Origin: Candidatus Thorarchaeota archaeon | GTDB lineage: Archaea; Asgardarchaeota; Thorarchaeia; Thorarchaeales; Thorarchaeaceae | Assembly: GCA_011364905.1 (NCBI GenBank) | Contig: RDNZ01000008.1 | Coordinates: 16,923 to 80,922, forward strand | DNA length: 64,000 bases | Reading direction: 5' to 3' | In this document: positions 2,679 through 45,169 of the stretch, piece by piece | Layout of the letters: each line of letters starts with the position of its first letter | Numbering within the stretch: position 1 is the stretch's first letter | Position numbers and translations under genes: made by a program | Notes under the pieces: generated by a model | The model's database searches: none | Told to the model about the DNA's origin: nothing | What the model saw: only the letters and a program-made list of their open reading frames with translations

Positions 2679-5600
2679 TCATTTCTTAGCATCAAGATCC
2701 GCGTCGATACTTTTCAGGAGTTCATCAATTAGGGCACTAGGAAGATTCTTCGCTTGTTTCAGAATTGATGCGATTTCCTCTTGTGGTAAACCTCTTTGTT
2801 CAAGTTGTTCACGGAGATTTTCAATCTCAAGATCGCTCAATCGGTCCTCGAACTCCACCTCTTTAATTGGCACTTCAAGCTCTGTGTCTTCGATCGATTC
2901 GAGAAACGCCTGAATCTTCTCTCTCGGAGCTGTTTTTGCTTCCTCAATTATGGCGTCAATTTCCTGTTTCGGAACTTTCTTCCGGACCAATTCGGCGCGT
3001 AGGTCCTCTCGTTCCTTGTCTGATAACGTATCGACTTTCTTTCTGGGTTTTTTCTTGGTTTTTGTTTCTGGCTTTTTGAAGAACTCAAGAGCAAGTTCTC
3101 TTGGCAGCTCTCTGGCCTGCTCCATAATCGAATCTATTTCACGTTCACTTGCCTTTCGCTTGATCAACTCAGAACGAAGATCCTCTAACTCCTTTTCAGA
3201 TAGATGTTCTACTTCTCCTTCTTCTATTTCTGGTTTCTTCCTAGGTGTGAAACCTTCCAGCAGCATCTGAACTACATCCTTCGGTAGATCTCTGGCTTGA
3301 GTGACGAATGACTCGATCTCATGAGATGGAATGCCACGTTTCTCTAGCTGCTCTGCCATTTCTGCTAATTCTATTTCACGTAGTCGATGTTCAAAATCGA
3401 GACCAGTTTCCTCCTCTTCTGAGACCTCTGTATCTTCTTCGAGATCTTCATAGAGATCTGGTTTGGCTACGGTTGCAGCTCCCCCAATCCTCTTTCTTCT
3501 TTCTTCCACGACCTCGTCCATGACCTGCTCTACAGACTTGTTTTGAACCCCTGCAACCCTAATTGCCTCTTGCCCAATTACCTCTCTCACAAAGCTAGTT
3601 TGTTGACTCATTTTCATCTTTGCAATCTCAAACTTGAAGTCGTCAAGCTCTTGTTGAGTCATTCCAGTGAGAATTGCAAGGTCAATAATCAGTTCATCTA
3701 TTTCGGGGACTTCTATAATGATGGACTCTGCTGGTAGTTGAGAAGCTTTTCTCTTTATTCCAATTGGCTCATTCAATTCATTGAATAGTTCTGCAACGAT
3801 GGCTTGTCTTGACCGCATACCCTTCGCTGGTTTTGGCACCTTATTCCTGCGTAGTCGTCGGACCTGACCACTGATTATTCTAATTATCTTCGGCACCCTC
3901 AAAATCCTTACCCACAGGACACCGAAAAGAATCATGAAGATGATAAATGCACCACCAACTGTCATTACGAACCGTTGCGTAAGTTGTTCACTTGATGGGC
4001 TGACAGAGATCGAAAGCGCCACGTCATCAGCAACATAGTATGTCTTGTTGAAGTGAATTGTCACATCTGCAACACCAGTTCTATCCGTTGCTGTGACACG
4101 GAACAGATAGTAACCCTGGCGACTTTCATCCGGACCAAGATACTCGACCTTGGCAAATAGGGGTCCTTTATTATCTATAGTAATCATGGCCTCAGTAATG
4201 CCCTCTGAAGGATGTCCTGGCCACGCGTCTGAATAATAGATCGAGAAAGTAGTGTTCATTCCCCAATGAAGCGATATCACTTCTGGTCCCATGACCTCAA
4301 GATTCGTTTGAATCTCGATGATTTGAATATCGAAGTCAAATACTGCTGTAGTACGGTTTTCGAGAGCGAGTTGAATGTGAAACGATATCGTTAGATCCAA
4401 ATCCCAGTCAAGTGTGTTAAAGACAAATGTGTAATTACCAAATCCTTGATCGGATAAAGTGAGTGGTTCTTCATAGACACCCCTTCCACTATAGAACGAA
4501 CCATTGAAGATTCCATCAGGAATTCCCATTGCAGCGTAGGTGTCATTGTACAATAGTGTGATAGTTAGTATGTCTCCATATGGGACTTGTAGATGTGCCC
4601 ATGAGTCTCCGATTTGATATAATTCTGGTAGAAGAATTGAGATGTCAGTGGGGACTGGGGCAATATGAATTCTAATCGTTGTTTCCACATTATCATAGTT
4701 TGCCTTTCGGAATTCCATCGCAATGGTGTATGTACCTGGTCTCAATGTTGCTGTATCTATTGGGATGCCATAGACTCCTTCGCCAAGATAGGATGCACTG
4801 CCAACTCCTCCTGCCCAGGAGAACGTGAATGTATCTGCCTCCATGCCCTGGGCATGATAACTATCATAGTATGTAACATTGACCAGCCCTGCCCATCCCC
4901 AATCAAATTCACCGGTTCCCGGTTGTATAATAATTGCCTCTAGATTCTTCACGAATATTGATGTGGAATTGTCTGCTCTCTCATAATCATCACTTGGTGC
5001 ATTAGCAGAAATGATGAAGGTGTGCAGTCCAGTAATGTCTATGCTCGTATTGAAGTCATAGTAATAATATCCTGGTCCTCCTATTGATGCCCCATTCGTG
5101 AGTGTCCCATTTTTGGCGAGTTCTGGCGAGTTCCATGTCACAAAAAGCCCATCCAAACCTGTAGAAAATGGATATGACGCGTTAAGGGCTGGAGCAAGAA
5201 CATATACTCCAATTCTGACGACATCAGACCAATTGATAGGGTTGGATTCGTAAGCTGCAGTGATATTGTCGAACCAAACGACCATCTGAATCTTTGATAT
5301 CGCCATAATCAGCGTTGTCGATGCATCCGCGTAGTTTTGTTTTCCAGCATTCACATGAATCTGGTAACTTCCGAAACCAGCAGATCCAGTTGATATAAGA
5401 AATCTGTAGTATCCTGGTCTGCTTGGTATTTCTGTCAATGTGAGGTTGCCCTCATAATCCCACCACGCTGATACATATGCTTCAGTCACAAGACTGTCAT
5501 CAAGAGAGTCTCCAATATACACAATTACTTCTTCAGCATCTCCCTGGGAAACTGTGAAGACATAATTATTACCTTCTGGAATGACTTCCATGGGTCTTGG

Positions 5601-8600
5601 CAGTAACCTGAAAACTAGCTGCTCTGTAGCATCAATGTAGTTTGGTGCACTGCCTTTGATTACAACGATTATTGTATCAGATACTGTGCCAGAGCTAGTA
5701 TCCAGAATTGCAGTGTAATTGCCGGGTACACCGGATGGGATGAATGGACCAACTCCACCATCCCAGTCAAATGTGATAGTTGCTAATGATACTGTCTGAT
5801 TCCTCAATGTGTCATTCAAAGATGCGAAAATTGTGAGAGGTTCACCCCAATATACCTCATTTGTAGACCTTGGTCCACTCCAGGCTATAATTAGGTTGGA
5901 TGGGACTGCAAGGAGATTAATATCAACTTTCAACGTATTAATCGAATAATGCAAGAGATTTGCGCCCACAGTCAAAATTTGCGAGCCATAGTTCAAATTG
6001 ACTGTCTGAAGTGTCAGGTTATAGCTACCATTTCCAAGGTCATCATATGAGTTTGAGTCACTCCAAGTGAGATCGAGAGTGGCTCCAGCAAGTGGGCTAT
6101 CGTTGTCATCAGAGTCAACAAGGTATATCATGACCGATGTGGCATAGCCTGCATAGTTTGCAGGAGCAACATCTGCTGAAAGTCCTGCAACTCTGTTCCT
6201 TAATCCAAACACTACAGCTGTCTGAGCGGTTTGATATTGAGACATAGCAATTGTCACATTTACTGTTTTCAGACCTGCACTTATCGAATCCATCATGCTC
6301 AGAATAATGTTATATTGTCCACCACCTAATGCTTGGACAGTCCATGAGGATGGTTCCAGTCCTGATGGCTCGTATCTGACTATTATCTGCCCTTCTGCTC
6401 CGTTTATTGGGACTGCATGGTCAGTATCATTGAATTGTATCACAAAAGAAACATCTTCATAAAATGCAACAACTGAGGGCGATGGCAATCCACTTGAAAC
6501 AGATGTTTGAATTGCACGGACCACCCCATGTACCTCTGGTGAGCTGATATTTACATAAAATGGACTTACCAAAGCACTCCATTGTACTTCAATTGAGAAT
6601 GTGAAAACGCCAATGCTTCCTAAAGAGGATGTGCTGATAAGAATTTCATACTTTCCCGAATCAATGCCTGTTCCCATTTGTACCCAATAGTCCAGTCCCT
6701 CAGCAAGACCCGGTACTTCAACACAATCGAGAACTATAGTTGCACCCTCTATTCCGTTTCTTTTCCTAAGATCAGTGTAGATCAAGTTTATACTCATTAG
6801 GTCTCCAATTGGCGTTTCTTCAATTTGACTTAACTCGACAGTTCCCACTCTGCCAACAGTGTTAACAAAGATTGAGACTGCGTCATCCTTGTAATAAGGT
6901 GCTCCGCCAGTCCAACCAACCTGAATTGTTATGTTCCAGCTACTTACCAGGTTTGCAGCTATCACAGTAGAATTGATTTGTAGTCGAAATATTGAGCCAA
7001 TTGGCTGAACCACATACTCACCAGATGCAAGAAGGATTCCTCCGCTGAATATCGTGATATCATTGAGAGAAACTAGCACTCTTGCGCCCGTCGATATATC
7101 GACAAACGTAAAGTCCAATGTCACGTTATCAAGGTACCATGTCTGACCTGGTGGAAATACAATCTCAACATTTGATGGTCGCTCAGTGACAGGAATGTTG
7201 ATTGCACGTAGTGCTTCGTTGTAGTAAGGCGATCCCGCAGACCAGTTGGCTGTAACCTGTATTGTTTTCACTCCTGGAATTCCAAGAACTGATGTATCTA
7301 TTGAGATTAGGTATTGACCTGGGCTATTCTCATTGATTATATAGTCGATGGATGGCTCAAGTAGTACCACTCCATAATGGAGATAGATTGTTCCACCTGA
7401 TATGCCTAAGGAGGTTGATGCATCCTTATACAGAATAGTGAAGTTTGCATAGTCCTGGTAAAGAGTTTGAGATGGTGATGAAATCAAATCCAGACTTGTG
7501 TCGCGCTCCTTCATCTCGAAAGGCACAAGTATATCGTTCCAATCATAGAACGGTGCAGCAAATTCAGAACTGAAGTTCAACCAAAGATGATAGGTGCGTC
7601 CCAACTCGAGTGGTTGGTTATAGGTTTCAACTGTGAGGAGATAGTTCTGGTGTGAGGGTCTCCAGGAACAAGTGAATAGCCAATCTGTTCCATTAAGAAT
7701 CTCTAGAGCTACTATAATTCCAGTATCGTTTCCTATCGGCAAAAAGGTGTCGAGGTCTTGATAATGCAAGACTATGCTGAAAGAGTTCTCATAAGGAACT
7801 GATGCAACAGGTTCCGCAGTCAACAGGGTGGATCGTGGACTGACAGTAAGGCTCTTTGTTCCACTTCTGCTCTGATAATAAAACTGCTCAGATGAAGCTT
7901 CCACTCTCAATGAATAGAGTCCCGGTTGGCTGAAATACGATGTGTTCAGGTCCACACGATATTCTCCCGAACCTAAATCTGTAACCTGAATATAATTGGA
8001 GGGAATCAAATCTACTCCAACATATACCTCAATCGTGGTGTTAAGAACTGCCTTGGAGGTTGAACCAGCAATATCAGTGTACGAAACAGTGAATGAAACA
8101 TTGTTGCCGTATGGTGTGGCGGGAGGTGTAGGATAGGTCAGAATTGTCTGACGTTCCACTATCGTTATGCCGATGTTTCGTCCTGTTACGTTCGAATAGA
8201 ATGGCAATCCACTCCAAGCAAGATTCAGTACTAGTGTTCTTGCTCCCAGTGGAGCTCCCAATTGACTTGTGTTGAATGAAACTTCATACAATCCTTCTAG
8301 GGAACTATAGGTCAGTGTGAAATCTGGTACATTTAGTGAAATCGTCATAACTGCGGGGTTGTAATCTATAGGGCTGGATAAGCCTCCAGTCGTATCTTCA
8401 TAAGTGAATGAGAATGTTGCATTTTCGCCAAAGGGCACATTGGTCGGAGGGATGACGGAGAGCGACGCAGTCCTAGGAAGGACTCTCACAGAAATCAAGT
8501 CAGTCCTGTTTGTGTAGAATGGAACCACACCAGCGGACCAGTTTATGAAAACTCTCATTGAAAAGATTCCAGTTCCTCCAACTATTGAATTGTTGAATCC

Positions 8601-11600
8601 GATTGAATACTCTCCTTTCCTGTTGACACTGTCTATCTCCCAAATGTCCACTATGGATAAATCAACGGAAGCGCCGACAAACTCAACATTGATGAAGACG
8701 TTGGATGTGTCATTCGTAATTCCACCTGTAGATGGGCTAGAATACAGGAATGTATAGACCATATAATCAAGGCAAGGAGAGGGAAGAGCAGCTTCAATCA
8801 ATGTTAGTTCAGTATCTGCTCCCAAAATTTCAACTACAATGGACAGGTATCTGTTCTCATACTTCTGAATACTTCCAGTCCAGTTGAAATAGACTCTAAG
8901 TTGTTGAATCCCAATGCCTCCAAACTGTGAGGCTGCAATCGATATAGTGTAATATCCATCGCCCCTGATTGAGTCATTACCCCAATTAACCACCAACTGG
9001 TGAGTTGTATTCCAGACTGTGCATAGGACATCAGAAGAGGCAATTCCTTGTAAATGATCGCGATCACCATAGTAGACAGAAACATTGATTGTCCCATCCG
9101 AAGTCGTGTCCTCCACTGGTGACAAAAGTCGTAATTCTGTTGTTATTGTTCGAACGACGACCGTGACATTGAATGTAGCTGCTTCATATTCTGGCCCAGC
9201 TGCGAAGTCAAAGACTAGAAGATAAGATGTCAATGCATCGCTGTCATAGGTATGAATTGTGATACTATATCGATTAGCCACCCAAACGATGTCAAAATGA
9301 GCCGGTGTCCAACTGCAGTTGTGATTCAGAGTGAAGATTGGTAGGTTATGATCCATATCAGTATAATCGACATAGAAAGTTCGAGAGTCACCCACAGGTA
9401 TTTCCAGCGCACTAATAGTAGCAGTGGCATAAGTTCTAATTTGTCGTATCTGAATGTCAATAGATATGGTCTTGTTCTCATAGGTTAATGCAGAAGCCTC
9501 AAAAGTCACACTATATGTTCCAATACCCCAAGAGGACGTGTTGAGCGTTACCCGATATCTTCCACTACTTATCAGTTGTTGACCGAGAATATCTGCTCCT
9601 GTCACATAAACAGTTGCTGTGTCAATTCCAATGCCTCTATCCAAATCAACAAACTCCAAGGTGACAATCGCATTTGTACTGTAGGATATTGTAAGAAGGG
9701 GATAATCTGGAGAAGTCAAATCACTTTGAGCTTGCGTGAATTGAAAACTAATGATAGGCGTTTGTGTGTTGGAGTAGTTCTCTGATATTCCAAAGACTAG
9801 GAAAACCCGTATACCATAGGCGCCTCCCGCGAAATATAAGTGATCGAGAGTTAATACGTAAGTTCCTGAAGGTTGAGCTGAGAATGTTTTGATGGTGTAG
9901 ACAGTCCCATTCTTATCCCTGATGATGAAGTGACTCTGTAAAAGACCATTCACGGGTGTATCGTCATATATTGAACTTGAGTCATTTACAGTCACATGAG
10001 TCGTTATCTCGAAGTCATCTCCGATTGGAAAAACATCAATGTCATCCCAAGAGAGGACAACGGCTAGCTTCTGGATCCTCAACAGTATCGACGTCGTCCC
10101 ATCATAGAAGTACCTCGGAGAAGTTGTAGCGAGGATTGTAATGTCAATTACATAGGTGCCTAATGTCCAATCCTGAGAGTCGATGAGGACCTGAAGTGAA
10201 CCAAAAGATGCAGACCCACCAGCCCACTCAGCCAAAACGCTAGACAGATTTCCTGATATTGCGGCATTTCCAGCGTCACGGTCTAGTAATTGAAGAGTGA
10301 CGGTGGCATTGGACCCCATGGATATAGTGCCATCATAGGAAGCCACTACGGTTGTCCTATGCGGTCTTACAGTTACTGCCACTGTGATTTGGGCTGGTTG
10401 ATAATTAGTCCCATCGATTGTGAAATTGAACAAATAAACTCCAACGTCATAGGAATCAACTTCGATTTGGACCGAGTATCTCCCATCAAGAAGGTCTGCG
10501 TATTGGAACACTCCATCACCAAGTAGTGTTCCTCCAATTATCCCCGCATCACTGTGATCAGTATCCAGCCAATTGAGTGTGATACTCGCATTACGTCCCC
10601 AAGGTACGCTGACTGGATTTACCTCGATCTGAACGAGGTCTGTCTTTATCTCCCTATAGCGGAATACAACATCAACTGAACTTCCTATCACAAAGCTTTG
10701 AGCTGGAACTGCATTTATTGTATAGCAATGTGTTCCGAAGCTCGAGCCTGTTGAAACCAGGCTGACAAGATACGTACCGTTGTTATAGTCTGTAACACCA
10801 TTAATCGTACCATTTGATGTGAAAGATGCCCCATCGTAACCCGCTCTGGTAATTGCATCTTCAAGCTCCACTTTGACACTAAAGTCATCACCATAGGGCG
10901 TTGAGGGGGGTGTCTTGAAAGATAGAATAGTGTTGCGTGAAAGTTCCAAATCAAAGAAAGTTGTTGCATCTATCAGGTACTGATGGCTCGAAACGATATT
11001 GATTCTCCAATTTCCAGGTTGATTGAGGTCCGAGGTGTTGAGAGTCTTCCCATAGATGCCGTTACCATAGTCTTCCAATTGAATCTGTGTTTCGGCTCCC
11101 GAGATACTCCAGTTCATTGCAACTTTAGAGCCCGCCACATCTTGGGAAGTTTCAGTATTTGTCAGTTGAACTTCGACTTTGAGAAGATCTCCTGCAGTCC
11201 GTACTGCCACACCATCTCCAACTGCGTCTGTGGGTGATAATAGACTAAGTGACGATGCATGTTTGACGGTGAACAATCTGCTATACCTTCCAACGCGTTC
11301 TGGACTTGAATCAGCTGTGTTATTGAAATCGACATGAACCTCCCAGAGCCCATTTGGCCATGCACTTGTCACACTTATTCCAGTCCATTCAAACTGACCA
11401 CTTCCATCCTGAGTAAGATCATCTGTGCTGTAAAAGAGCTGACCACTTGAATCAATCAAAGAAAGCCGCATTGCGGACCCAGGAATCATCGTAGCAGTTC
11501 CTCGGAATTTTGCAGAGTCTCCAATTTGCAGTGCTACAGAGTTTCCATATGCCCCCGCATTCGCGCCACACTCAAGATTTGTGATCTCATTGGAGGATGA

Positions 11601-14600
11601 GAACATAAATGTCCAAACTCCGTACACGTCAAGCACTGAAGAGGGCACCATGACCTGTAAGCTTGTAGCAGTGACGTAGAAGAGTCTGTCCTGACCGAGT
11701 GAATCGGTCACACTTGAAAGAGTCCAATCTGAAGGTTTCATAAGTGTGAAATTCAGTGTACTCACACCTGGCGGGGGGCTAACTAAGACATTAGCTGTCC
11801 ATGATGCATCAGTGTCATTATTCACACTGAACGAAGAACCATATTCAAAGTTTGCATCGAGAGTTGAGTCAGAATGAGTCACATTGATTTTTAGTCTTGG
11901 AAGAATCTCAACAACTGAGTCTGAACTCGTGGCAAAGAGCAGTTTTGCCTTTTCTCCGAACTGCGTTGTCTGCTCAATACCTTTAGTCAGGAATCCTGAA
12001 GGATCATATTGGTTTGCATATTCTGTCTGAATCCAACCAGCCGATTTGTAACCATTGATTACTCTAAACTCATCAATGCCTCCTCGAAACGGAGTGCCTC
12101 CTCCTATTGTACCAATGACGAACATATTGCTATCGCTACGCAAAGAACCTCCAGTTCCCAAGGTGTTATCATTAAACGAGTCCAAAAGCACACCATCTAC
12201 AAAGCTATAGCCCCGGTACCGCCCATCCCCGCTGCTCTCATATTTAAAGACCACATAGTTCCAAGCTTGTCTCTTGACGAGCACACCTTGGAAAGCATCG
12301 TAGCCGTTGAAATGAACATCAACTTGGAAATTGGCATATCCAGGGACTCCAACATCGAATGTACGCGCCAGACTCATAGAAGTACCCTTATCGAATACTC
12401 TCCATTCGTTTGACCAGAACTCGGTATCAGTGGAGAAATTAAAGTAGATCCAGAATGAGAATTGCCAATCAGACCAGCCATCAAAGATGCTCTGACCGTC
12501 AACAAAGGAAATGTAGTTGCTCCCTACATTCTCGCTGTATCTGGCACCATCAATCATCCCGTTCGGCATATAGCTCGTTAAAGTTGGTTCTCCGCCGTGA
12601 CCATTGATGCTTGAATCCATCAAGTACGCTGCAGTGCCTGACTGTTCAGAGAGATGCCAGATACTTTCGTATCCTTGCCAAATATTGGCTGAATTCTCTA
12701 TTCTTTGAGGTTCAGGTGTTCCATATTGCATGCTGATTACGGTGTCCTCAGTTGCAGACAAATAGGGGACTTGAACCCACGCAATCAGGTGCGCGTGTGT
12801 ACCATTGTAATTCGGGTCAAATACTTCGACTTGATAGTCCAATGTTTCTGAGCCTGATACAAATCTAATGTCATCACCATCTGATCGAGCATGGCTTTTA
12901 AGATCGGCATCAAGAATGTCGACAAGAACAGGGAAGTTTTCAAGGTCCGCGCTGACCTTTGTATGGTCTATTGTCAGTTCTTTACTGTACTGTTGTACTG
13001 ATATTGTGTCTTCTTCCTGAGGTATCATAAAGTCAACATAGAGTCTTGCGAGGTTTCCTCCTCCATATGACCAAGTTCCCTTTATCGTGTTGTAGTCGCG
13101 ATAGTTATCTGAGAACATGTAGCCAATCATTAAACCAATGTAGTTGCCACTAGACCATCCCGAACGGGAAACCACTGCTTGGACAAGTGATGAAATGTCC
13201 GGTGACGCATATCGATAGTCAGCCGTCCAGTAATTTGGTGCCCAGTCAATGCTGTTCTCAATCCAGGGATACTGAACCTCCAAAGGATTAGCGCCAGTGG
13301 CAAATGGTGCCATATTGTCAGCTGCAGCCACCCATACTTTGAACGTGTTGTCATCCCCATCCGAACTATACTCACCTAGAGCCTCAATTTCCAATCTCGC
13401 AGATGTAATTACAGCTCCTCTTGGGATGTTTAATGGAAACTGCATTCCAGTTTGATACTTAATCACATCAGTCCAAGCTGTGCCACTTGAACTGTAGACT
13501 CCCACCTCTGGAGTTCCTGTAACACTTATTCCGGTATCAGAGCGACTGACACAGTCTCTGTTTGCCCCATCTGGTACAAAGGGCATGGTACTATCTGACA
13601 CGGTCCCTGTGATCACAGTCTGATTGGCATGAAGACCAACTTGTTCTGGGAAAGGCCTTACTGTGAATGTGGCCTCTATCTCATCTATATACACGAAGTT
13701 ATTAATATTGGATGGAGGTTGACCCGAAAAGTCTGTACTCAGACCAATTGACAATGGAACAGATCCCGGTACTGGAATACTTGAGAATACCGAGGCCGGT
13801 ACATCAACAAATCCCTGCAGCCACGTGTCGGTGGTATAGCCTGTATCAAATACGCCAAACCTGGCCTCATAGTTTCCGACCCTCACAAACAGATAAAACA
13901 TGCCATTCAATGTCTGACCACTTGGTACTCTATGATAGAATGATAGTCTGCAGGAGTACACCTCTCTCCATGGCAACTGGACCTGCTGACTTAGATATAT
14001 CTCCATGTTGGGATTAAGAGTCTTGGTTGTGTCAAATAGAACACTGGGTCTCCACCCCATAGAGCTCTCTCTCCCGGCTCCTGCTGATGTGTACCAATAG
14101 AGCCCTCCATGCCTAGGATGCGTTGTCGAGTCACCCTTTTTCACAAGTGACCAGCCATCAGGCAGATAGAATGTTTCTGAGTTCCATGTTGAGCCTGTTA
14201 TAATGTAACGTTCTGTATGGTAGTCATCAAGAAGTCCATTTGTCAATTGGGAAATTCGCGTAGAAATGTGCTCCATTGTTCCACTTAGAGCATTTGCAGT
14301 CCAGCCTTGAGGTGTGGCGATGGGAACTGATGCTGGCGTTGATGAGTCGAGCATGACAATAGGCTGTGTGGCATTAGAGAAGACGCCGCTAAAATTGATT
14401 GGTTGTGCTGCTCCTGTTGAACTATACTCTTGAGAACCCTCGGAAGGCTCAAACCAGTAAGGCGAGTTTTTGTTAATGACCTTTCCACTGGTCAAATCAG
14501 ACTGATTTGGAGTGAAACCTGCTGGAGAGCAAAACATTAGCAGGATGATACATGGGATTATGGCTCTGGAACACACTAGCTTCCATATCTTAGCGCGTTT

Positions 14601-14624
14601 CTTAGGGGAAGTACCTACTATCAT
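2679..14624 (-). CDS. Giant single-pass cell-surface protein A (3981 aa): signal/anchor, N-terminal beta domains, one DUF2341+LamG module, long Ig-like stalk, TM helix, about 410-aa cytoplasmic tail
   Basis: Uninterrupted 11.9 kb ORF; IDHTKVSADLENFPVLVDI...WHLSE...IDEFRV...WIQTEYANQ; repeated YGxNxT/GxYxI beta units; many NxS/T sequons; TM FVMTVGGAFIIFMILFGVLWV; SD GGAGGTGA at 14631-14638. Confidence 0.9.
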   Translation of the reverse strand: MIVGTSPKKRAKIWKLVCSRAIIPCIILLMFCSPAGFTPNQSDLTSGKVINKNSPYWFEPSEGSQEYSSTGAAQPINFSGVFSNATQPIVMLDSSTPASVPIATPQGWTANALSGTMEHISTRISQLTNGLLDDYHTERYIITGSTWNSETFYLPDGWSLVKKGDSTTHPRHGGLYWYTSAGAGRESSMGWRPSVLFDTTKTLNPNMEIYLSQQVQLPWREVYSCRLSFYHRVPSGQTLNGMFYLFVRVGNYEARFGVFDTGYTTDTWLQGFVDVPASVFSSIPVPGSVPLSIGLSTDFSGQPPSNINNFVYIDEIEATFTVRPFPEQVGLHANQTVITGTVSDSTMPFVPDGANRDCVSRSDTGISVTGTPEVGVYSSSGTAWTDVIKYQTGMQFPLNIPRGAVITSARLEIEALGEYSSDGDDNTFKVWVAAADNMAPFATGANPLEVQYPWIENSIDWAPNYWTADYRYASPDISSLVQAVVSRSGWSSGNYIGLMIGYMFSDNYRDYNTIKGTWSYGGGNLARLYVDFMIPQEEDTISVQQYSKELTIDHTKVSADLENFPVLVDILDADLKSHARSDGDDIRFVSGSETLDYQVEVFDPNYNGTHAHLIAWVQVPYLSATEDTVISMQYGTPEPQRIENSANIWQGYESIWHLSEQSGTAAYLMDSSINGHGGEPTLTSYMPNGMIDGARYSENVGSNYISFVDGQSIFDGWSDWQFSFWIYFNFSTDTEFWSNEWRVFDKGTSMSLARTFDVGVPGYANFQVDVHFNGYDAFQGVLVKRQAWNYVVFKYESSGDGRYRGYSFVDGVLLDSFNDNTLGTGGSLRSDSNMFVIGTIGGGTPFRGGIDEFRVINGYKSAGWIQTEYANQYDPSGFLTKGIEQTTQFGEKAKLLFATSSDSVVEILPRLKINVTHSDSTLDANFEYGSSFSVNNDTDASWTANVLVSPPPGVSTLNFTLMKPSDWTLSSVTDSLGQDRLFYVTATSLQVMVPSSVLDVYGVWTFMFSSSNEITNLECGANAGAYGNSVALQIGDSAKFRGTATMIPGSAMRLSLIDSSGQLFYSTDDLTQDGSGQFEWTGISVTSAWPNGLWEVHVDFNNTADSSPERVGRYSRLFTVKHASSLSLLSPTDAVGDGVAVRTAGDLLKVEVQLTNTETSQDVAGSKVAMNWSISGAETQIQLEDYGNGIYGKTLNTSDLNQPGNWRINIVSSHQYLIDATTFFDLELSRNTILSFKTPPSTPYGDDFSVKVELEDAITRAGYDGASFTSNGTINGVTDYNNGTYLVSLVSTGSSFGTHCYTINAVPAQSFVIGSSVDVVFRYREIKTDLVQIEVNPVSVPWGRNASITLNWLDTDHSDAGIIGGTLLGDGVFQYADLLDGRYSVQIEVDSYDVGVYLFNFTIDGTNYQPAQITVAVTVRPHRTTVVASYDGTISMGSNATVTLQLLDRDAGNAAISGNLSSVLAEWAGGSASFGSLQVLIDSQDWTLGTYVIDITILATTSPRYFYDGTTSILLRIQKLAVVLSWDDIDVFPIGDDFEITTHVTVNDSSSIYDDTPVNGLLQSHFIIRDKNGTVYTIKTFSAQPSGTYVLTLDHLYFAGGAYGIRVFLVFGISENYSNTQTPIISFQFTQAQSDLTSPDYPLLTISYSTNAIVTLEFVDLDRGIGIDTATVYVTGADILGQQLISSGRYRVTLNTSSWGIGTYSVTFEASALTYENKTISIDIQIRQIRTYATATISALEIPVGDSRTFYVDYTDMDHNLPIFTLNHNCSWTPAHFDIVWVANRYSITIHTYDSDALTSYLLVFDFAAGPEYEAATFNVTVVVRTITTELRLLSPVEDTTSDGTINVSVYYGDRDHLQGIASSDVLCTVWNTTHQLVVNWGNDSIRGDGYYTISIAASQFGGIGIQQLRVYFNWTGSIQKYENRYLSIVVEILGADTELTLIEAALPSPCLDYMVYTFLYSSPSTGGITNDTSNVFINVEFVGASVDLSIVDIWEIDSVNRKGEYSIGFNNSIVGGTGIFSMRVFINWSAGVVPFYTNRTDLISVRVLPRTASLSVIPPTNVPFGENATFSFTYEDTTGGLSSPIDYNPAVMTISLNVPDFTLTYSSLEGLYEVSFNTSQLGAPLGARTLVLNLAWSGLPFYSNVTGRNIGITIVERQTILTYPTPPATPYGNNVSFTVSYTDIAGSTSKAVLNTTIEVYVGVDLIPSNYIQVTDLGSGEYRVDLNTSYFSQPGLYSLRVEASSEQFYYQSRSGTKSLTVSPRSTLLTAEPVASVPYENSFSIVLHYQDLDTFLPIGNDTGIIVALEILNGTDWLFTCSWRPSHQNYLLTVETYNQPLELGRTYHLWLNFSSEFAAPFYDWNDILVPFEMKERDTSLDLISSPSQTLYQDYANFTILYKDASTSLGISGGTIYLHYGVVLLEPSIDYIINENSPGQYLISIDTSVLGIPGVKTIQVTANWSAGSPYYNEALRAINIPVTERPSNVEIVFPPGQTWYLDNVTLDFTFVDISTGARVLVSLNDITIFSGGILLASGEYVVQPIGSIFRLQINSTVIAANLVSSWNITIQVGWTGGAPYYKDDAVSIFVNTVGRVGTVELSQIEETPIGDLMSINLIYTDLRKRNGIEGATIVLDCVEVPGLAEGLDYWVQMGTGIDSGKYEILISTSSLGSIGVFTFSIEVQWSALVSPFYVNISSPEVHGVVRAIQTSVSSGLPSPSVVAFYEDVSFVIQFNDTDHAVPINGAEGQIIVRYEPSGLEPSSWTVQALGGGQYNIILSMMDSISAGLKTVNVTIAMSQYQTAQTAVVFGLRNRVAGLSADVAPANYAGYATSVMIYLVDSDDNDSPLAGATLDLTWSDSNSYDDLGNGSYNLTLQTVNLNYGSQILTVGANLLHYSINTLKVDINLLAVPSNLIIAWSGPRSTNEVYWGEPLTIFASLNDTLRNQTVSLATITFDWDGGVGPFIPSGVPGNYTAILDTSSGTVSDTIIVVIKGSAPNYIDATEQLVFRLLPRPMEVIPEGNNYVFTVSQGDAEEVIVYIGDSLDDSLVTEAYVSAWWDYEGNLTLTEIPSRPGYYRFLISTGSAGFGSYQIHVNAGKQNYADASTTLIMAISKIQMVVWFDNITAAYESNPINWSDVVRIGVYVLAPALNASYPFSTGLDGLFVTWNSPELAKNGTLTNGASIGGPGYYYYDFNTSIDITGLHTFIISANAPSDDYERADNSTSIFVKNLEAIIIQPGTGEFDWGWAGLVNVTYYDSYHAQGMEADTFTFSWAGGVGSASYLGEGVYGIPIDTATLRPGTYTIAMEFRKANYDNVETTIRIHIAPVPTDISILLPELYQIGDSWAHLQVPYGDILTITLLYNDTYAAMGIPDGIFNGSFYSGRGVYEEPLTLSDQGFGNYTFVFNTLDWDLDLTISFHIQLALENRTTAVFDFDIQIIEIQTNLEVMGPEVISLHWGMNTTFSIYYSDAWPGHPSEGITEAMITIDNKGPLFAKVEYLGPDESRQGYYLFRVTATDRTGVADVTIHFNKTYYVADDVALSISVSPSSEQLTQRFVMTVGGAFIIFMILFGVLWVRILRVPKIIRIISGQVRRLRRNKVPKPAKGMRSRQAIVAELFNELNEPIGIKRKASQLPAESIIIEVPEIDELIIDLAILTGMTQQELDDFKFEIAKMKMSQQTSFVREVIGQEAIRVAGVQNKSVEQVMDEVVEERRKRIGGAATVAKPDLYEDLEEDTEVSEEEETGLDFEHRLREIELAEMAEQLEKRGIPSHEIESFVTQARDLPKDVVQMLLEGFTPRKKPEIEEGEVEHLSEKELEDLRSELIKRKASEREIDSIMEQARELPRELALEFFKKPETKTKKKPRKKVDTLSDKEREDLRAELVRKKVPKQEIDAIIEEAKTAPREKIQAFLESIEDTELEVPIKEVEFEDRLSDLEIENLREQLEQRGLPQEEIASILKQAKNLPSALIDELLKSIDADLDAKK
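2705..3383 (-). repeat. Four copies of an about 45-aa three-helix repeat in the cytoplasmic tail of protein A
   Basis: LREIELAEMAEQLEKRGIPSHEIESFVTQARDLP; LSEKELEDLRSELIKRKASEREIDSIMEQARELP; LSDKEREDLRAELVRKKVPKQEIDAIIEEAKTAP; LSDLEIENLREQLEQRGLPQEEIASILKQAKNLP. Confidence 0.85.
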
Positions 14625-17600
14625 TCCTCTTCACCTCCTTTCCCGAGAATGCTTCTCAGGAGCTCCTCAGCTAGACTTCTTGGAAGTTCACGTGCTTGGT
14701 CCATGATTGTTTCAAGTTCGCTGCCCTTGATTCCAACACTCTCCAGTTTCTTGCGAATCTGTTTCAACTCATCTTCATCCAACATCTCTGCTGATTCGAC
14801 TTCTTCAAATTCCACTGGTTCTGGAATAGCTTCTTCAGGCTCTTCCACTTCTGGTGGAATGATCCTTTCTTCAAGTGGCTTGGATTCCACCACTACTTCA
14901 ATCTCTTCTCCAGCCAGAACAGCACGCGCCTTAGCGGCGGTTTCCTCCAAAATTACCTCCATCGGTTTTCGTTCTAATCGTGCCTGTTTGATGGCCTCTT
15001 GGTTGATTACCTCTTTGACAAAACTCACCTGTTCACTCAACTTCATCTTTGAAACATCAAGCTTGAAGTCTTCAAGTTCTTCAGGTGATAGCTTCGACAG
15101 GATTGATAGTTGAATGAGCAGTTCCTCAATTTCAGGAACATCACTGGCGATAGGTTCACTTGGCATACTGGATGCTATCTTTGTGATACCAATAGGTTCT
15201 GCAATATCATTGAATAAGTTTGCAACAATCTCTTGCCTACTTAGAACGCCATCTGGAGGCTTGGGTATTTTTCCCTTAGCAATAGTTCTTACCATTTTCC
15301 TGATAGCCCGTAGCTGCTTTGGCACACTAAATAGCCTGGTCCATAGTACTGCTCCAAGCAATAATATTGCACCAATTGGAACACCGAAGAGTATTGCTTG
15401 TTCAACAAGCAAATCAAACTCAGAGGGTTCGACTGAAACTGTTACCAACGCACTGATTGAAACATAATTGTCCTTGGATAGAATGATTGAAACTAGAGCT
15501 GTTCCTTCTGCTCTATTAGATCGCACTCTTATTTCATACCAGCCTGGTCTTGATGGATCGGACTGGTTTAGTGAAACGTCCACGAAGCGCGTATCTAGAC
15601 TTGTAGCATTTATTGACGCTCCTACTATGCTCGCATTCATATGACCTTCCCAAGTGTCATAGTAAAGTACCCAGATACTGAAGACTTGGCCATAGTTCAT
15701 GGTTACGGAACTTGGATCAATATATAGCGCTGTTGGGACATCAATTATCGTGAGATGAATATCCAGTGTTGCCCTACTCCAGTTGGTAAGGTGGAAGTTT
15801 AGAATCAATCTATATGGATCTGAACTAACCGTCCATCGTGTGGTGTCAATCAGCAGACTATAGTTGCCATTTGTGATTTCTTCGATAAGGAGATTGTCTC
15901 CATCAGGAACCGAAGAACCAAGAATCACACATTTCGTTTCGGTAGCACCCATAATCCCCCGATTATACCATGTGTCATTATAGAAAAGGGTGAGTGAGAT
16001 TGTGTCTCCATAAGGTATCTGAAGATTTAGAACATCATGGTCAATCTGATTTATCGTGGGTGCGAATGCAGCTATATCTGTTGGGACTTCTTTTACATTA
16101 AGTGTGAAAACGCCTGTTCCACTCTTGTAATTGTCCATCAGAAACCTCACAGAAACAGGATAAATTCCGGGACTAACTAGGGAGGCATTTATGAATACTT
16201 GATATGTTCCATTTGCTACATACGTGGATGTACTCTCACCACCATCCCATTCCACCAGTACTGTGGCTCCAGCTATTCCTCTATCAAACAAGAGGTCCCA
16301 GTATGTGATATCAACCCAACCAGTCCACCCCCAGATTTTTGGACTCAAGTATGTTGATTCGACTGATGTTTCAATGGGTTTTATTATCAAGGTTGTAAGA
16401 TTGCTAGAATACGCAAACATGCCGATATTGGGATAAGCTGTGATTCTAAGTGTGTAAGTAGAAACATCATAGTTCCAGGTTTCGAAATCGAAGTAGAAAT
16501 ATCCTGGTCCTTCCATTGACGTCCCATTGAGGAACTCTCCTGTAAAAGTGGTTCCCGAGAGTGACCATAGCACCGTGCAATTTGCCAAACCTGTTGAAAA
16601 TGGATCAGACTCGTTCAATGAAGGTGCAAGAACATATACTCCAATTCGAATTGTATCTGACCAGTTGAAGCTTTGACCACTGTAACTAGAGGTTAGCGCA
16701 TCAAGTTGTAGAACTGTGGCTATCTGTTTGACCTTAATGCTTGCAGGGGCTACTGAACGAAGATAGTTAGTTCCACTTGCTTCTATCGTAATGGAATACT
16801 GTCCAACAAGGAAGTCGTTTGTGTCAATGAAACAGGTATAGTACCCATCTTTTGCAGGGATTGGAGATAAGCTAATGCTCTGCGGTCCTTGTAAAACCCA
16901 TCTGACTGTGACAGTTGCTCCTAGTAGAGGTATGTTTCGATATGTGTTATTGACATAGACTGTCACATTTACAGGAGTGCCTTTAAACACCTCTTGTTGT
17001 GCGCTACTGATAATACTCACAGTGGTTGGCAGTTTTAGGACATTCACTATGACTTGCGAGGTATTAGTGACGTAGTTGTTGAATGTAGCTGTGATTGATA
17101 TGACATAGGTCGATGCTAGCACTAGATTGCCCGTATCTACTGTGACTGTGTAATTCCCTTGGTCAGATACGATTTCAGTAAGACTACCACTCAATGTACC
17201 AAACTGGTAAGTGAGTGTTGCTCCAGATATTACAGTGCCAGCTTTAGTGTCATTGAAGATTGCCCAGAATGATATGTCATCGCCCCAGTAGACATCTGGG
17301 ATTGTCTGAGGCAGAATGAGTCCAGTTGGTATGCGTTGGATTTCAACTGGTACAGAAATATCTGAGATGAAGTAGTCACTTCTTAATGCACCAACCATGA
17401 GTGTATAGAGACCCGCATCAAGACTAGATGTAGTGAGTGTAATGTTGTACTGGCCATTCCCAAGATTGGTATAGTATGGAGTATATCCGATGTCTGGCCA
17501 AGTGATTGATAGTGTGGCGTCACTAATGGGTGTGTTATTTGCATCTGTGTCAACAAGTTCTACGATAACAAAGGTGGTTTCGCTGTAGTATGGCTTCTGT

Positions 17601-20600
17601 GAAACCAGTTCATTCAGCTCTCCCTGCCGGAGTCTGATCTGAAATGGCACCTGCACTTGGACTGTCTGATAATCTGGTAACGCCAAGGTTATAATGAGTG
17701 CGTTGGTTACTGTTGTACCTGCATCATAACAATCCACGGTCAAATTGTATATTCCTGGTGATATCGGAGTTATGCTCCATATGTAAGGCCCAGAAGCATT
17801 CGTCTTATATTCCACCGAGAATAGGCTCTCGGCTCCACTAATAGGAACGAAATGGTCCAAATCTTGGAGATTCAAAATCACAGAAACATTGTCGTTTATC
17901 GGAACAGTGGATGGAACAGGTTCTTCATTTGTGAGCTGCAACTGTATTAGTCTGACAGACCCTTGGAGGAATATTGTTGTGGTGTTTCTGTAGTAAGGCG
18001 CAACTGTAGGATTCCAAAGCAAACGTAGAGAGAAGGTGAATGTGCCTATACTGCCAAGACTTGTGGTGTCAACAAAAATTGAATAATCGCCAGAATTCCG
18101 ATAAATCCAGAAATCTGTTCCTTCTGCAAGGCCACTTGGACTTAGACAGTCGAAAACTACAATTGCATCATTGATTCCTGCACCATTTGAATCATCAACA
18201 TAAGTGAAGTTGAGTGTCATATTATCATATATTGGGACAGTTGGTGTTGCTCCACGGATAACGATTCCGATTCTGTTTGCCACTGTTACCCATGAGGATG
18301 CACGTCCATCTGCATAATATGGTGCAACAGTGTTATGCCAATCTATGTAGAAGGTTATGTTCTGATTGTCAATTAATCCTGCAGCTAATACTGATGAGTT
18401 GATAGAGATCTCATAGCCAGATCCGAGATATACCATAGCGAAATCATTGCTTGATAGCAAGGTTCCCTCATTGTATATTAACAACTGATCCTTGCTAAAC
18501 TGGATTGCTTTACCTGATGTTTCATCACTATATCTAATGGTAAAAGTGACATTCTCTAAGAACTTGACTTGTGTTGTTGATGATACTATCTCAGTGATTG
18601 AGTTTCTCTCTGTTACAGTAAGTGTGAGGCTCAGAGTCGAAGTTGAATAATATGGTTCGTTATCAATCCACGATGCTCCTAGTTCAAGATTAACTGATGA
18701 TCCAGCTGGTCCCAGTACTGTAGTGTTGATTGAAATGTAATAGCTACCATCAAATGGACTAAGAAGTGAATAGTCTATACCTTCTACCAGGTTCGTTCCG
18801 CCAACTGCAAGAGTAATTGTGGCTCCAGCGATTCCGGCAGAGGACGATGAGTCTTGATAATACACAGCGAAGTCTACACTGTCCAAGTACTGAGTAGGTT
18901 CCGGAGATTCTGTGACCTCCAAGATGGTTGCTCGCTCCTGAAGAGTAAATGAAACAAAAGCTTCGGCCGAAAGATAGAATGGCGATGAATCCGGATAGCT
19001 AACCTGTATCCAAAGAACATACTCCTTGTTTATCTCAAGATTTTGATTATGAGTATCAATTGTGAGAAGATAGTCCTCTGGAGCCCCTCTCCAAACTGAA
19101 ACAAAGAACCATGAACTTCCATTTAGAATCCAAACTGTTGTCGGTGTTGAACTGTTGCCAATTTCAGATAGAGTCAACACATCACTGTAATGAAACACTA
19201 CCTGAAGGGAGTTGTTATATGCTGTTTCCTCAACGGGCTCTATGAGAAGGACTGTTAGTCTATATCGCAGACTAAGTGTTCGTGATGCAGTAACTATGTC
19301 ATAGTAGAAATGACTTGTACTCATCGCTACTGTGATTGTGTAAGTGCCTGGCTTCGTAAAGTAGGTCGTCTTGAGTTCAACGTCATACTCTCCATTGCCA
19401 AGTGGCATGAATGAGTATTCAGTCACAGGAATTGCTCCCGACCCATTGTACAAAGTAATGAAACCATCATCAATGGTTTGTGACTGCCCCGGCGTGATGT
19501 CATTGAATGTTAAATGTAGGGTTACATTATCGCCATACGCCGTGGGACTAATTGTTGAATAATCGAACTCTGTTTCACGGTATCTGACGCTAATGATGAC
19601 ATTTCTCCCTGTCAAATTAGCATAGAATGGCGCTCCAATCCAACTGACTCCTATTGTGAACTGACGCGTTCCGAGGGGGGCTCCCAGAATGCTAGTGTTG
19701 AATGAAACATGAAACTGTCTTGCAGATGTGTTGTAGGTGAGAGAGTAATCTGCCAGTCCAATAGTGACTCTCATCTGAGAACTGTTAGCAATACTATATG
19801 AGCCGCTTCCTGCAATATCATCAAATGAGAATGAAAATGTAGCATTGACTCCATAAGGAGTGCTTTCAGGTGGGACCAAATTAATCAAAGTGCTCCTCGG
19901 TATGACTCGAACTGACACCGTATCTGTCCAGTTACCATAGAATGGCTCCTGAGTTTCGGTCCAGTTCACATGTACAACCATTGTATACACTCCTGGTTCA
20001 GCAAAAATTGTGCTGTTGAACTCAATTGTATAGTGTCCTAGATTTCCGGAATCTTCTTTGATTGAAAACAAGGAAGGACTGAAAGACTGGCTAACAAACT
20101 CTACATAGATGAATACATTTCCTGCTGGCGCTGATACATTGGAAATGCCATTGCCACTGTATAGCTCACTATAGAAATAGGTGTAACTCAGATTCTCTAG
20201 ATATGGCGTTGGCTCAGCTGATACAATCAGTTCAAGATCAGATGCCTCGCCTACGATTCTAACAGAAGAAACTACGGAATTATCATAGAACTTCGGAACA
20301 GGCCCTGTCCAATTGAAATATACAGTGATATCATAAATTCCAGAGGTACCTAAGTTCGTGGCTGCAAAGCTGATTATGTAATACCCATTTCCCAAAGTTG
20401 TGTCATTCTTGAAGGTAGATGAAATCCATCCCGAATCCCCATATACAGACAAGTTGACAGGAGCGTCAATTATTCCTAAATCGTTGTCCAAGTCACCACA
20501 ATAGACGGAAATATTGACCATTGCATTGTAGCTTGTTGGTTCGGTAGCACTTGCGAGTCTGAACTCGGTTAGGTGTGTCCTTAGAATGATGCTTATGTTG

Positions 20601-23600
20601 ATGTACCCAAATTGATAGTTGGGTCCTTTTGAAAAGTTTAGCACTACCAAGTAAGTGCCAAGACTATCTGTATCTATGCTAGGTAGCTCTATTCTATACT
20701 GGTCGCCAGTCCAACTAATACTCAATGGATAGGTCCAGTTATGATTCAGAGTCGCCCCGATTATCGCTTCATTATGTGTGATGTCCCAGTAGTCTGCGTA
20801 GAAGACAGCAGTGTCTCCCAAAGGCAAATCGATGATAGAAACAGAAGACCTTGCATATGCATATGCAATCTGCACAAGGATTTGGAACGTGAGTGTTTTT
20901 GCTTGATATCCACTTGCATCTGCAGTAATATTCACCTCGTGGGCACCAAGGTCCCATCCTTGTACGATAATCAAAACCTCGTAAGTTCCACTTCCAATGT
21001 GCTGCCATTCAATCAAAGCACCTTCCGAAGTCATGATACCCGTCGTAATGTTCTGAACATGATCAATATCAACATAGGATAGTGTGATTGTAACATTCGT
21101 ATCAAAACTAGTTGTTACACTTGGGTAATTTGAAGACGACAAGTAAGTAAGAATCGGGCGGTATGTGAATGAAACTTGAGTAGTACTACTGTCTGTGTAA
21201 TTCTCTGTGGGCTGAAAGTCCACAAAGACAATGATTTCATACTGCCCTTCTAGGAACCTTGTGTTGTCAATCGTTATTTGATATCTCCCATCTCCAAGGT
21301 TCAAGAAACTCTCAAAGGTGTAAAGTCCACCTGTTTCGTTGCGAGCGCTGAAGTAGGTCTGATCAAGTCCAGCAATTGCTGTCCCGTCAATCGGACTATC
21401 CGGTTCGCTTACATTCACATGAACAAACATTACGAAGTCATTGCCATTTGGAAATGGTTCGAGAGGCTCCCAACTCACATACACACCCAGTTTTCGAATC
21501 TCAAGATGGATTATGATATACGAGTCCATATAGAATCTCGGGGATGCCGTGGCACTTATCGTCGCATTGATGGAGTACGACCCCGCTGCCCAACCACTGG
21601 TATCCACCCAAAAGCCTAGCACAGAATGACTGTCACTTCCAGTTCCCCAATCCAAGCTTACTTGGGTCAGATTGCTAGGACTTACAGGAACTGAATCAAG
21701 ATCTAGATCCATCCACAAGACATCAAAGTAGACATCAGTACCAACAGGTATGGTGGAGTTATAGTTCACGCTTGGCGTTGTTCTGTGTGGAAGAATCAAG
21801 ATGCTTATTGTGGTCGTTGATGATTGGTAATTTTGCTTTGAGCATGTTAGGTCGAAGTAGTAAGTTCCAGGCATAAATGAACTCACGTCGATTGTGATGA
21901 GATAATTGCCAATGCTGGTTTCATCTACCTGTATCGGAACAATTGGAGAAATTGAGATTGTGCTACTATCTACTCCAATTCCTGCGTGGTCGATATCAAA
22001 CCAGTATATACTTGTGTTCACTTGTTGCCCCCATGGAGCCTCAACTGCATCAGGACTGAGTGGAATAGTTTCAGTTGCAATAGGCCTATAATTGAATTGA
22101 ACATCTATACTGCTACTCAATAGATACGTAGTACTTGGGGTTGCTATGAACCTAAATGTGTGCTCCCCACTTGAGAACCCTGTACTATCCACTGTCACAA
22201 GGTATGTCCCATTTCCATAATCTGTAGGTATTCCTAAAATTGTCGCATTACAGGAGAGGGTTGCACCTGTCAATGGCGTGCTATCGAATTTGTCCCTCAA
22301 TGTCAACCTAATCTCAAAATTGTCGCCATATGGTGTATCATTTGGAGGTTCATATGTCATGAATGTTCTGTGCGAGAGGTCTAAATAGAGGAAATCCGTT
22401 GCATCGCTATAGAATGAGTGTGATGCTTGAACATCTAACCTCCAACGGCCATAGCCGCCTAAATCGGACGTATTCAGTGTCTTGCCATATCTTCCGTCTC
22501 CATAATCATTGAGCTGAACATCCGTGGGTGTACCACTGACGCTCCAATTCATTGATACCGTTGCACCACTCACCATTGTTGAGGTCAATGTATCTTGCAG
22601 ATCAAACTCAACATAGAGCTGCTCGCCGATGAGCTTGGTTGAAATTCCATCAAGTATAGCGTCTCCTGGTGCAGTGAGGCTTAAAGAAGTTCCACGTTTC
22701 ACAATGAAAGTCCTATCAAATATACCTGTTCTGAGGTTTACGTCAGAATTGCTATCACTATACCTCGTGGTAGCATGCCAAACTCCTGCAGGAGCAGAGG
22801 TGTCCAAGTTGATGGACGCTGACTCTGAATATCCTATGTTTTCCTCCAATCCTATCGAATAGAAGTTGCTTGGATTGTACTGATTGCTGAACTGCGTTTG
22901 AATCCATCCTGCTGAACGTGTGACATCCGAAACACGCACCTCGTCGATTTGGCCATCCCACTCTGCGCTCCAGGTCTTGTTCTGAGGTTGGTCACCTTGT
23001 CCAATCCAGAAGTCCTTCTCAAATGAAGAGGGTTCAATCGCATTCGTTTTTGTTAGAACATTTGGATCCTGAACTCCATCCACATAGATTCTCATCAACG
23101 AACCATCGTAGGTTGCCACAATCTGATGCCAAGAACCTCCAGTGACATCATTGGCTCCGACAAGCTGATGAGTATCGCCGGGTAGGCTGAAGGTTGGTTT
23201 GATGGTTGAGCCTCCGCCATAATTGATGTACAAGGCATATCCATCATACCAGCCTTTGTGGTTCATTATGCCATAGACATGAGTATTAGGAGTGATGTCA
23301 TGCTGAATCCACGCTTCAAGTGTTATCTGATATCCATCAATATCCCAAAGAGGACTGTCTCCACAGTCTATGAAATCGTAATAACCATCAAGATTATTGA
23401 ATTCCTGACCAGCGCCAATCTTTCCGACTGTTTGAGTCGGAACAAACAAGCTATCCCCATCCCCACCTTGACCATCGTTCTTGTATTGGCTACTGTCTCG
23501 ATACTCACCCAGTAGTCCCGTTCCACTTTCAGAGAGGTGCCAAACCCCCAGATATCCTGAATCCCAAACAGGTCCCGAATCGTACACTATTGGGGCTAAT

Positions 23601-38473: not shown

Positions 38474-38556
38474 ATAATACTCCCTCTTAAAGCACGAGTG
38501 GTTCTAAGACATCTGCCGACCAAGTGCGGATTAGAAGAACGAAGGGACACACTCCA

Positions 38557-39315: not shown

Positions 39316-39317
39316 CT

Positions 39318-40055: not shown

Positions 40056-40058
40056 ACC

Positions 40059-41276: not shown

Positions 41277-41418
41277 CTGAGTTCATGTGAACAGTATTCG
41301 TAAGGTGTTAAGAATTTCTGTCACATCCGAGTACATACATACACAATATCATCTGCGAACTGCGAAGGTTTAAACGGTATCTCCCCACTGGATGAGCTGA
41401 GTATCTCTCTTGGAATAG

Positions 41419-43616: not shown

Positions 43617-43782
43617 GTGAGTACCTCCGGTAGTCTACTTACATCGAGGAGTTATCCAAGAATAACTCGTGTATTATTCTGGAAACATCGGGGTATCTCT
43701 GTATAAATTGCTAAAAGATTGTACACGCCATATCAGTTATATCCGACTAGAATTGCCTGACCTTAATTCACAGGCGATATTC

Positions 43783-45168: not shown

Positions 45169-45169
45169 A

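Follow-up and report, generated by a model that had tools for sequence, protein, structure and literature searches.

The β integrins and the classical cadherins, both eukaryotic adhesion receptors, are built on a common plan in which a huge, glycoprotein-like ectodomain and one membrane helix are followed by a conserved membrane-proximal segment and then by elements that dock adaptors. A tail laid out along similar lines is described here from the Asgard archaea, the closest known relatives of eukaryotes, which have many small GTPases, leucine-rich repeat (LRR) proteins and genes of the endosomal sorting complexes required for transport (ESCRT). The tail belongs to giant A, a single-pass surface protein encoded in a stretch of 64,000 nucleotides (nt) from Candidatus Thorarchaeota archaeon (GCA_011364905.1, contig RDNZ01000008.1, positions 16,923 to 80,922), hereafter the window, whose numbering is used throughout unless another contig is named. 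Giant A lies head to tail with giant B, both on the minus strand, and the two are paralogues with about 35% identity across most of their length; DUF2341 and LamG-type domains are found in their relatives, whose source is metagenome genomes of Thorarchaeota type. Window positions 2679–3907 (minus strand) encode the cytoplasmic tail of A, 408 residues long (2682–3905), together with the stop codon, and the tail of B counts 237 residues (14624–15334). By comparison with the integrin and cadherin tails, the giants are encoded as paralogue pairs too, but Pfam, Foldseek and VIA-align revealed no relation in sequence or fold, and the candidate docking elements of the Asgard proteins are folded bundles held on leashes, not short linear motifs.

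We read window 2679–3907, with a probability of roughly one half, as a composite docking tail, the only intracellular part of a receptor-like type-I surface protein, whose segment next to the membrane would be apposed to the bilayer and whose partners would be first the LRR protein encoded upstream and then the neighboring GTPases. The topology bears out the cytoplasmic location that an earlier note on this DNA had assigned to the segment, as a hydrophobic helix immediately precedes the tail in both A and B, and the tail stands behind a C-terminal membrane helix in all four of its carriers in this genome. Four parts can be told apart within the tail, which we call JM-N, JM-C, the leash and the units R1–R4 (boundaries in Table 1): a basic juxtamembrane segment of about 55 residues, a four-helix domain, an acidic disordered linker and either one or four three-helix bundles of 48 residues each.

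The fold of these parts was predicted with AlphaFold2 for the whole A tail, using an alignment of six rows (mean predicted local distance difference test, pLDDT, 71.7; predicted template modeling score, pTM, 0.25). In this model, JM-C consists of helices at tail residues 68–80, 84–95, 99–121 and 125–140 with a pLDDT of 83–91, and the helices of R1 to R4 span residues 177–218, 237–273, 296–340 and 358–407 with a pLDDT of about 80–89. The leash is predicted at 32–37 and, together with the spacers between the units, stays below 50 throughout. A single unit folded by itself is likewise a three-helix bundle (pLDDT 83); of the 45-residue, three-helix unit proposed earlier, the three helices hold in the models and the length does not, since the unit measures 48 residues when its N-cap is counted. 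Each of R1–R4 is acidic, with a net charge between −2 and −5. The short spacer between R2 and R3 is polybasic, as it also is in four of the five orthologue tails that were read, and in a tail that is acidic elsewhere it could provide another patch for membrane binding or for recognition.

The tails of A and B are 39% identical over 227 residues (E 3e-45), and this identity is unevenly spread: it amounts to 50% over tail residues 1–62, 51% over residues 63–125 and 26% over the linker, against 32% for the ectodomains. Among five A-type orthologues, residues 63–125 are more conserved than the ectodomain in all five and residues 1–62 in three; in the closest orthologue, the former are 97% identical compared with 73% for the ectodomain. 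Conservation within the tail is highest in JM-C (51–97% identity), and the earlier impression that the juxtamembrane part is better conserved than the ectodomains is therefore upheld. A hidden Markov model (HMM) seeded on the five repeats of the window recovers exactly the copy numbers given in the earlier note, four in A (tail residues 172–219, 232–279, 291–338 and 353–400) and one in B. In 46 tails of related giants, four copies are found in 40 and one copy in six, so that the variable copy number is a matter of four or one according to the paralogue and not of a drifting array. Within the 40 four-copy tails, a unit is 51–68% identical to units at the same position and 31–43% identical to those at other positions; the four positions are old and individually kept, which fits four distinct sites better than a spacer. 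A further, degenerate copy inside the juxtamembrane domain, also suggested in the earlier note, finds no support in the sequence, given that the profile–profile comparison yields a local P of 0.0014 over merely 20 columns and a global probability of 0.3%; the four-helix model of JM-C does not decide the matter.

To determine the distribution of the whole module, the four paralogous tails that this genome encodes were made into a profile, with which 1.84 billion representative proteins were searched by HMMER. The profile retrieves 131 proteins at an E-value of 0.001 or better, 91 of them at 1e-30 or better, and among the matches listed that exceed 1000 residues the tail always sits at or near the C-terminus. 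A and B score between 1e-77 and 1e-78 against the profile, and both have the architecture that defines this tail family (membrane helix, JM-N, JM-C, leash and at least one unit). In this genome the tail occurs on four frames alone, namely the pair A and B and another tandem pair on contig C15, whose members have about 2570 residues each; together they make up four of the 14 frames longer than 1500 residues. Across 400 Asgard genomes, matches below 1e-50 are present in 80 of the 85 genomes of the same family and in the one genome of its sister family. The full module is thus confined to Thorarchaeota-type genomes and is always C-terminal. A stand-alone soluble protein with the repeat was sought as well, and the repeat HMM found just the four giants among the 34,048 frames of this genome, the next match having an E-value of 0.22. 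Tails in other Asgard families contain helix-turn-helix-turn-helix units of a like pattern, as read from HMM alignments, and these may be homologous to the Thorarchaeal unit. When a Loki-type tail served as query in a word-based search, just four close relatives were returned. A third giant, with an A/B-type head 44% identical to the first 600 residues of B, lies on another contig (G000 C95:69372-77759), where it runs off the contig end, leaving its tail unassembled.

Directly upstream of B lies the gene of the candidate partner, an LRR protein whose open frame of just 217 residues has no hydrophobic N-terminus and leaves no room for a signal peptide, which places the protein in the cytoplasm. 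At an E-value of 1.4e-44 or better, 23 genomes, this one included, have an orthologue of this protein, and in 18 of these, belonging to four genera, the gene is found 107–293 nt upstream of an A/B-headed giant on the same strand. In the other five genomes, the LRR gene stands at a contig end (two), no head passes the threshold (one) or the heads lie on other contigs (two). Divergent from the LRR gene are the genes of two Ras/Roc-like GTPases, whose N-terminal halves (about 210 residues) have no Pfam match; in five of five genomes checked, a Ras-like GTPase homologue is again divergent from the LRR orthologue, at a distance of about 200–230 nt. Of the partners that had been proposed for the tail, conserved gene order thus lends support to the LRR protein and to both GTPase-like proteins, but not to an ESCRT adaptor, as discussed below. 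LRR and Roc or Ras modules are found together in the ROCO proteins, and there are LRR proteins that bind Ras. The likeness here is that LRR and Ras/Roc-like GTPase genes are side by side near the giants; in contrast to ROCO proteins, they are separate genes with no COR domain seen, and their link to the tail is putative.

Taken as a docking tail, the segment would work as follows. The first helix of JM-N, basic and amphipathic, probably lies on the inner face of the membrane, and this helix, the conserved loop that follows and the second helix would form a fixed, membrane-apposed surface readable by a conserved cytoplasmic factor. To this surface, Thorarchaeota would have added JM-C and one or four acidic three-helix bundles on acidic disordered leashes, which may act as binding sites that reach out into the cytoplasm, four non-equivalent ones in the case of A. 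As partners, we consider the cytoplasmic LRR protein whose gene lies upstream to be the most likely, with the neighboring Ras-like GTPases reached by way of it, and the cell surface would thereby be coupled to a small-GTPase switch.

A rather unlikely alternative is that the tails of tandem giants bind each other or themselves and so cluster or pair the proteins in the membrane, much as integrin α and β chains do, with no further partner involved. The carriers are indeed tandem paralogue pairs in this genome and in many relatives (e.g., G338, G364, G355 and G333), small helical bundles often mediate self-association and, as said, no part of the tail is as well conserved as JM-C. However, the modeled tail displays no packing among its own domains, as its low pTM reflects, the number of repeats is unequal within the pair (four versus one), and JM-N is also present on small proteins near which no tandem partner was detected.

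The last point leads from the composite tail to JM-N as a module of its own. Weak whole-tail matches (1e-6 to 1e-8) are found in four other Asgard families and mainly cover the first 50 positions of the profile; the proteins matched are smaller surface proteins, and the matching segment adjoins their membrane helix. A separate JM-N profile (55 positions, built from 12 segments) matches 254 of the 400 Asgard genomes. Families that contributed no member to the profile are among those matched, for instance in 114 of 135, nine of 14, five of five, four of four and three of three genomes, and some other Asgard families have no match at all (0 of 31, 0 of 22 and 0 of 12 genomes). A and B score 3.6e-19 and 4.9e-24, values that are not independent as both proteins are among the 12 rows of the profile; they fit its definition, a basic motif of two helices and about 55 residues right behind a membrane helix, with its invariant proline and arginine. 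These two residues, a near-invariant second arginine, a G-K turn and the second helix are conserved across Asgard classes. In all 24 distinct hits outside the family whose loci were read, JM-N lies no more than 32 residues behind a hydrophobic 19-mer. As controls, only five of the 34,048 frames of this genome were matched, those of the four giants at E-values of 1e-17 to 1e-22 and a small one at 1e-4, and the best match among reversed frames had an E-value of 0.12. A word-based database search with JM-N returned 47 proteins, and every name given by NCBI is Asgard (Promethearchaeota, Hodarchaeota, Odinarchaeum yellowstonii, Odinarchaeota, Hermodarchaeota and Thorarchaeota); as such a search scores word-sharing candidates alone, the absence of other phyla from it is weak evidence.

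JM-N also occurs, in a JM-N-like form, behind the N-terminal membrane helix of a small protein of 174 residues that lacks any ectodomain and is encoded outside the window (Table 1). This protein is found in 78 of 86 genomes of the family, as a single match in 75, and its family aligns with JM-N over 51 columns with an hhalign probability of 94.9% (E 4.3e-8). Such a protein, amounting to a tail alone, could be a regulator or a decoy. In at least 20 genomes of the family, an A/B-type head is encoded about 15–24 kb from its gene on the same contig, which may be mere conserved gene order. From these comparisons, JM-N, which the earlier note had not set apart, appears to be an autonomous, old and portable module, far wider in distribution than the full tail. 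One could go further and regard it as an Asgard-wide cytoplasmic “address”, a folded element that stands behind the membrane helix of many unrelated surface proteins and of one protein lacking an ectodomain and that would be read by a conserved adaptor linked to small GTPases; Thorarchaeota would have extended it into a multivalent receptor tail. This reading is tentative and on balance doubtful; if it were true, receptor-to-GTPase coupling through a cytoplasmic tail, a hallmark of eukaryotes, would already be found in their archaeal relatives.

Does such a basic segment need a reader at all? With a net charge of +11 in A and +5 in B right behind the membrane helix, JM-N could be no more than a strong positive-inside signal that stops transfer and sets the topology of secreted chains of great length; the units would then be soluble ballast or a spacer with no specific ligand. 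The short relatives are consistent with such a passive anchor, given that in 11 of the 24 hits outside the family the protein ends within 35 residues of JM-N and the tail hardly exceeds it. The specific residues conserved across Asgard classes are nevertheless more than a charge rule needs, and neither the individual conservation of the repeat positions nor a JM-C up to 97% identical where the ectodomains reach 73% is expected of ballast, so that we hold this explanation to be fairly unlikely. The first helix of JM-N is strongly amphipathic, with a hydrophobic moment of 0.75 in A and 0.77 in B that is reached by 1.1% and 0.35% of shuffled sequences, respectively.

A common juxtamembrane motif on many unrelated ectodomains also resembles a sorting signal, and the tail might accordingly be a sorting or turnover tag, as the earlier note also suggested for sorting, read not for signaling but by trafficking or membrane-remodeling machinery such as ESCRT or by vesicle or protrusion sorting. 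In the PGF-CTERM/archaeosortase and LPXTG/sortase systems, a recognizable element sits beside the C-terminal membrane helix of many unrelated surface proteins, as JM-N does; their signature, however, is on the outer side of the membrane helix, which is itself followed by no more than a few basic residues, whereas here the conserved element is cytoplasmic, about 55 residues long and followed by up to 350 more. Neither PGF-CTERM nor any other NCBIfam sorting-domain model was among the matches to the tails (237–408 residues) at E-values up to 10. The genes for ESCRT-II, a Vps4-like AAA ATPase and Snf7 are located 6–10 kb from the giants in the window, and ESCRT-II is near giants in three genomes of the same genus. 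It is not near them in the two genomes of other genera examined: in G375 a different contig carries it, and in G320 a distance of 1.26 Mb separates it from the LRR gene and the giant. The ESCRT linkage is therefore rejected as genus-level gene order, and the link to an ESCRT adaptor that had been put forward is not supported. No MIT-interacting or other established sorting motif was identified in the tail, although none was tested for, and a sorting tag is, on these grounds, quite unlikely.

As to known families and folds, the description of the module as unnamed holds. No model of Pfam or NCBIfam scores above its cut-off on the tails, the units or the tails of relatives, a search of PDB sequences with the unit profile reaches an E-value of 0.041 at best (to designed proteins), Foldseek against the PDB has no match at 0.001 or better for either the whole tail or a single unit, the ESM Atlas offered no usable match for the tail, and literature searches found no published description of it. 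With VIA-align (48,161 chains), the whole tail attains a Z of 6.1 at best and a single unit one of 5.5, both below the bar of 8–13 that the tool sets for helical bundles; the best match of JM-C (Z 6.1) is likewise not meaningful for a helical domain. The leading matches are generic small bundles, among them X domains of paramyxovirus P, domains of protein A and the N-terminal domain of a MerR-type protein. Three-helix interaction modules such as the X domain of paramyxovirus P, protein A, GA/FIVAR and UBA/CUE resemble the units in size (about 45–50 residues) and topology, with a Z of 5.3 for the Hendra virus P C-terminal domain, 4.9 for mumps P and 4.2 for a CUE-like domain in unit searches, and 5.3 for a protein A fusion in the whole-tail search. 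All of these lie under the 8–13 bar and the units bear no sequence signature of the families, which makes this a likeness of architecture alone. The more specific comparison with UBA and RecX, also made in the earlier note, finds no support. UBA_HYPK matches one of seven units at E 0.031, below its cut-off, with no other UBA model on the units and none on whole tails, and the CUE-like domain (8t48_D; root-mean-square deviation 2.9 over 48 residues) is tied with dozens of unrelated bundles. RecX_HTH1 matches one of seven units at E 0.058 and the whole tail at 0.34, where RecX_HTH2 gives 2.7, all far under the 26-bit cut-offs. In the absence of a significant family or fold match, “UBA/RecX-like” means merely a small three-helix bundle. 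The GTPase-associated adaptor domain GAAD (PF19976; cut-off 23.6 bits) has no match on the tails or units of the window; on a tail of another Asgard family (L007:869-1609), it matches two stretches below threshold (18.9 bits, E 0.0016), which is notable solely because GTPase genes adjoin the giants. That the bundles are helix-turn-helix-like nucleic-acid binders freed by proteolysis from a membrane-tethered regulator is very improbable, as the weak likeness to homeodomains (Foldseek E about 3–8) and to the MerR-type domain (Z 5.5) and the polybasic spacer are set against four acidic units, no significant fold match and no evident cleavage site or protease.

Several observations weigh against the docking reading. 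The JM-N helices of A (tail residues 4–19 and 33–45) are modeled with low confidence (pLDDT 46–69), and fold matches as generic as those above are uninformative on function. The JM-N profile included members of five of the families that score with it, so that only the other families are independent evidence of its spread. Related genomes are not independent of one another either, and the synteny counts given for the LRR gene consequently overstate the support. The tandem pair on C15 has no LRR gene upstream, its place being occupied by a 747-residue membrane-anchored extracellular protein, and the LRR protein thus cannot be a partner that every such tail has. In G320, a genome in a single contig, the frame that comes after the LRR orthologue (2589 residues; C1:1709524-1718200, approximate) has a giant-type head, but no tail match is near it; this gene is either tail-less or interrupted.

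A conserved, unnamed module on the largest surface proteins of Asgard archaea provides concrete, clonable candidates for a link from the surface to GTPases, LRR proteins or ESCRT. These candidates are small (a 55-residue module, a 48-residue bundle, a 210-residue LRR protein and two GTPases) and can thus be tested with recombinant proteins even though the organisms are uncultured. New here are the division of the juxtamembrane part into JM-N and JM-C, the spread of JM-N across Asgard archaea and its occurrence on a protein lacking an ectodomain, the finding that each unit is conserved according to its position, the counted linkage of LRR gene and giant, and the rejection of the ESCRT linkage.

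Table 1. Features of the giants, their tails and the neighboring genes (window coordinates, except for the last row).
Feature	Position	Strand	Description
Giant A	2679..14624	−	3981 residues; single-pass surface protein
Transmembrane helix of A	3906..3971	−	protein residues 3552–3573; hydrophobic stretch immediately ahead of the tail
JM-N of A	3720..3905	−	tail residues 1–62; net charge +11; predicted amphipathic helix, KGK/PKP-type loop, second helix
JM-C of A	3483..3719	−	tail residues 63–141; net charge −6; predicted four-helix domain
Leash of A	3393..3482	−	tail residues 142–171; acidic, predicted disordered, net charge −11, weakly conserved
Three-helix unit R1	3249..3392	−	repeat HMM and AlphaFold2
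Three-helix unit R2	3069..3212	−	repeat HMM and AlphaFold2
Polybasic spacer R2–R3	3036..3068	−	11 residues; net charge +6
Three-helix unit R3	2892..3035	−	repeat HMM and AlphaFold2
Three-helix unit R4	2706..2849	−	terminal and most conserved position; repeat HMM and AlphaFold2
Giant B	14621..32290	−	5889 residues; paralogue of A
JM-N of B	15149..15334	−	tail alignment and JM-N profile
JM-C of B	14912..15148	−	tail alignment
Single three-helix unit of B	14648..14791	−	tail residues 182–229; repeat HMM
LRR protein, candidate partner	32446..33078	−	210 residues; predicted cytoplasmic; directly upstream of B; Pfam LRR_8 E 4.7e-14
Two Ras/Roc-like GTPase genes	33288..35958	+	426 and 414 residues (33288-34568 and 34714-35958); divergent from the LRR gene; Pfam Ras and Roc
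ESCRT cluster	38524-42036		EAP30/Vps22-36-like, ESCRT-II/Vps25, Vps4-like AAA ATPase, Snf7
174-residue small protein	G000 C95:47854-48375 (L055:1854-2378)	+	outside the window; N-terminal membrane helix, JM-N-like segment, helical C-terminal part

Elsewhere in the window, two genes of about 447 codons encode proteins with N6_N4_Mtase and UPF0020 methyltransferase domains (1295-2641, plus strand, and 50792-52132, minus strand), one of which runs convergently towards the end of giant A, and a tandem pair of TldD/PmbA-type metallopeptidase genes is located at 43669-46519 (plus strand).

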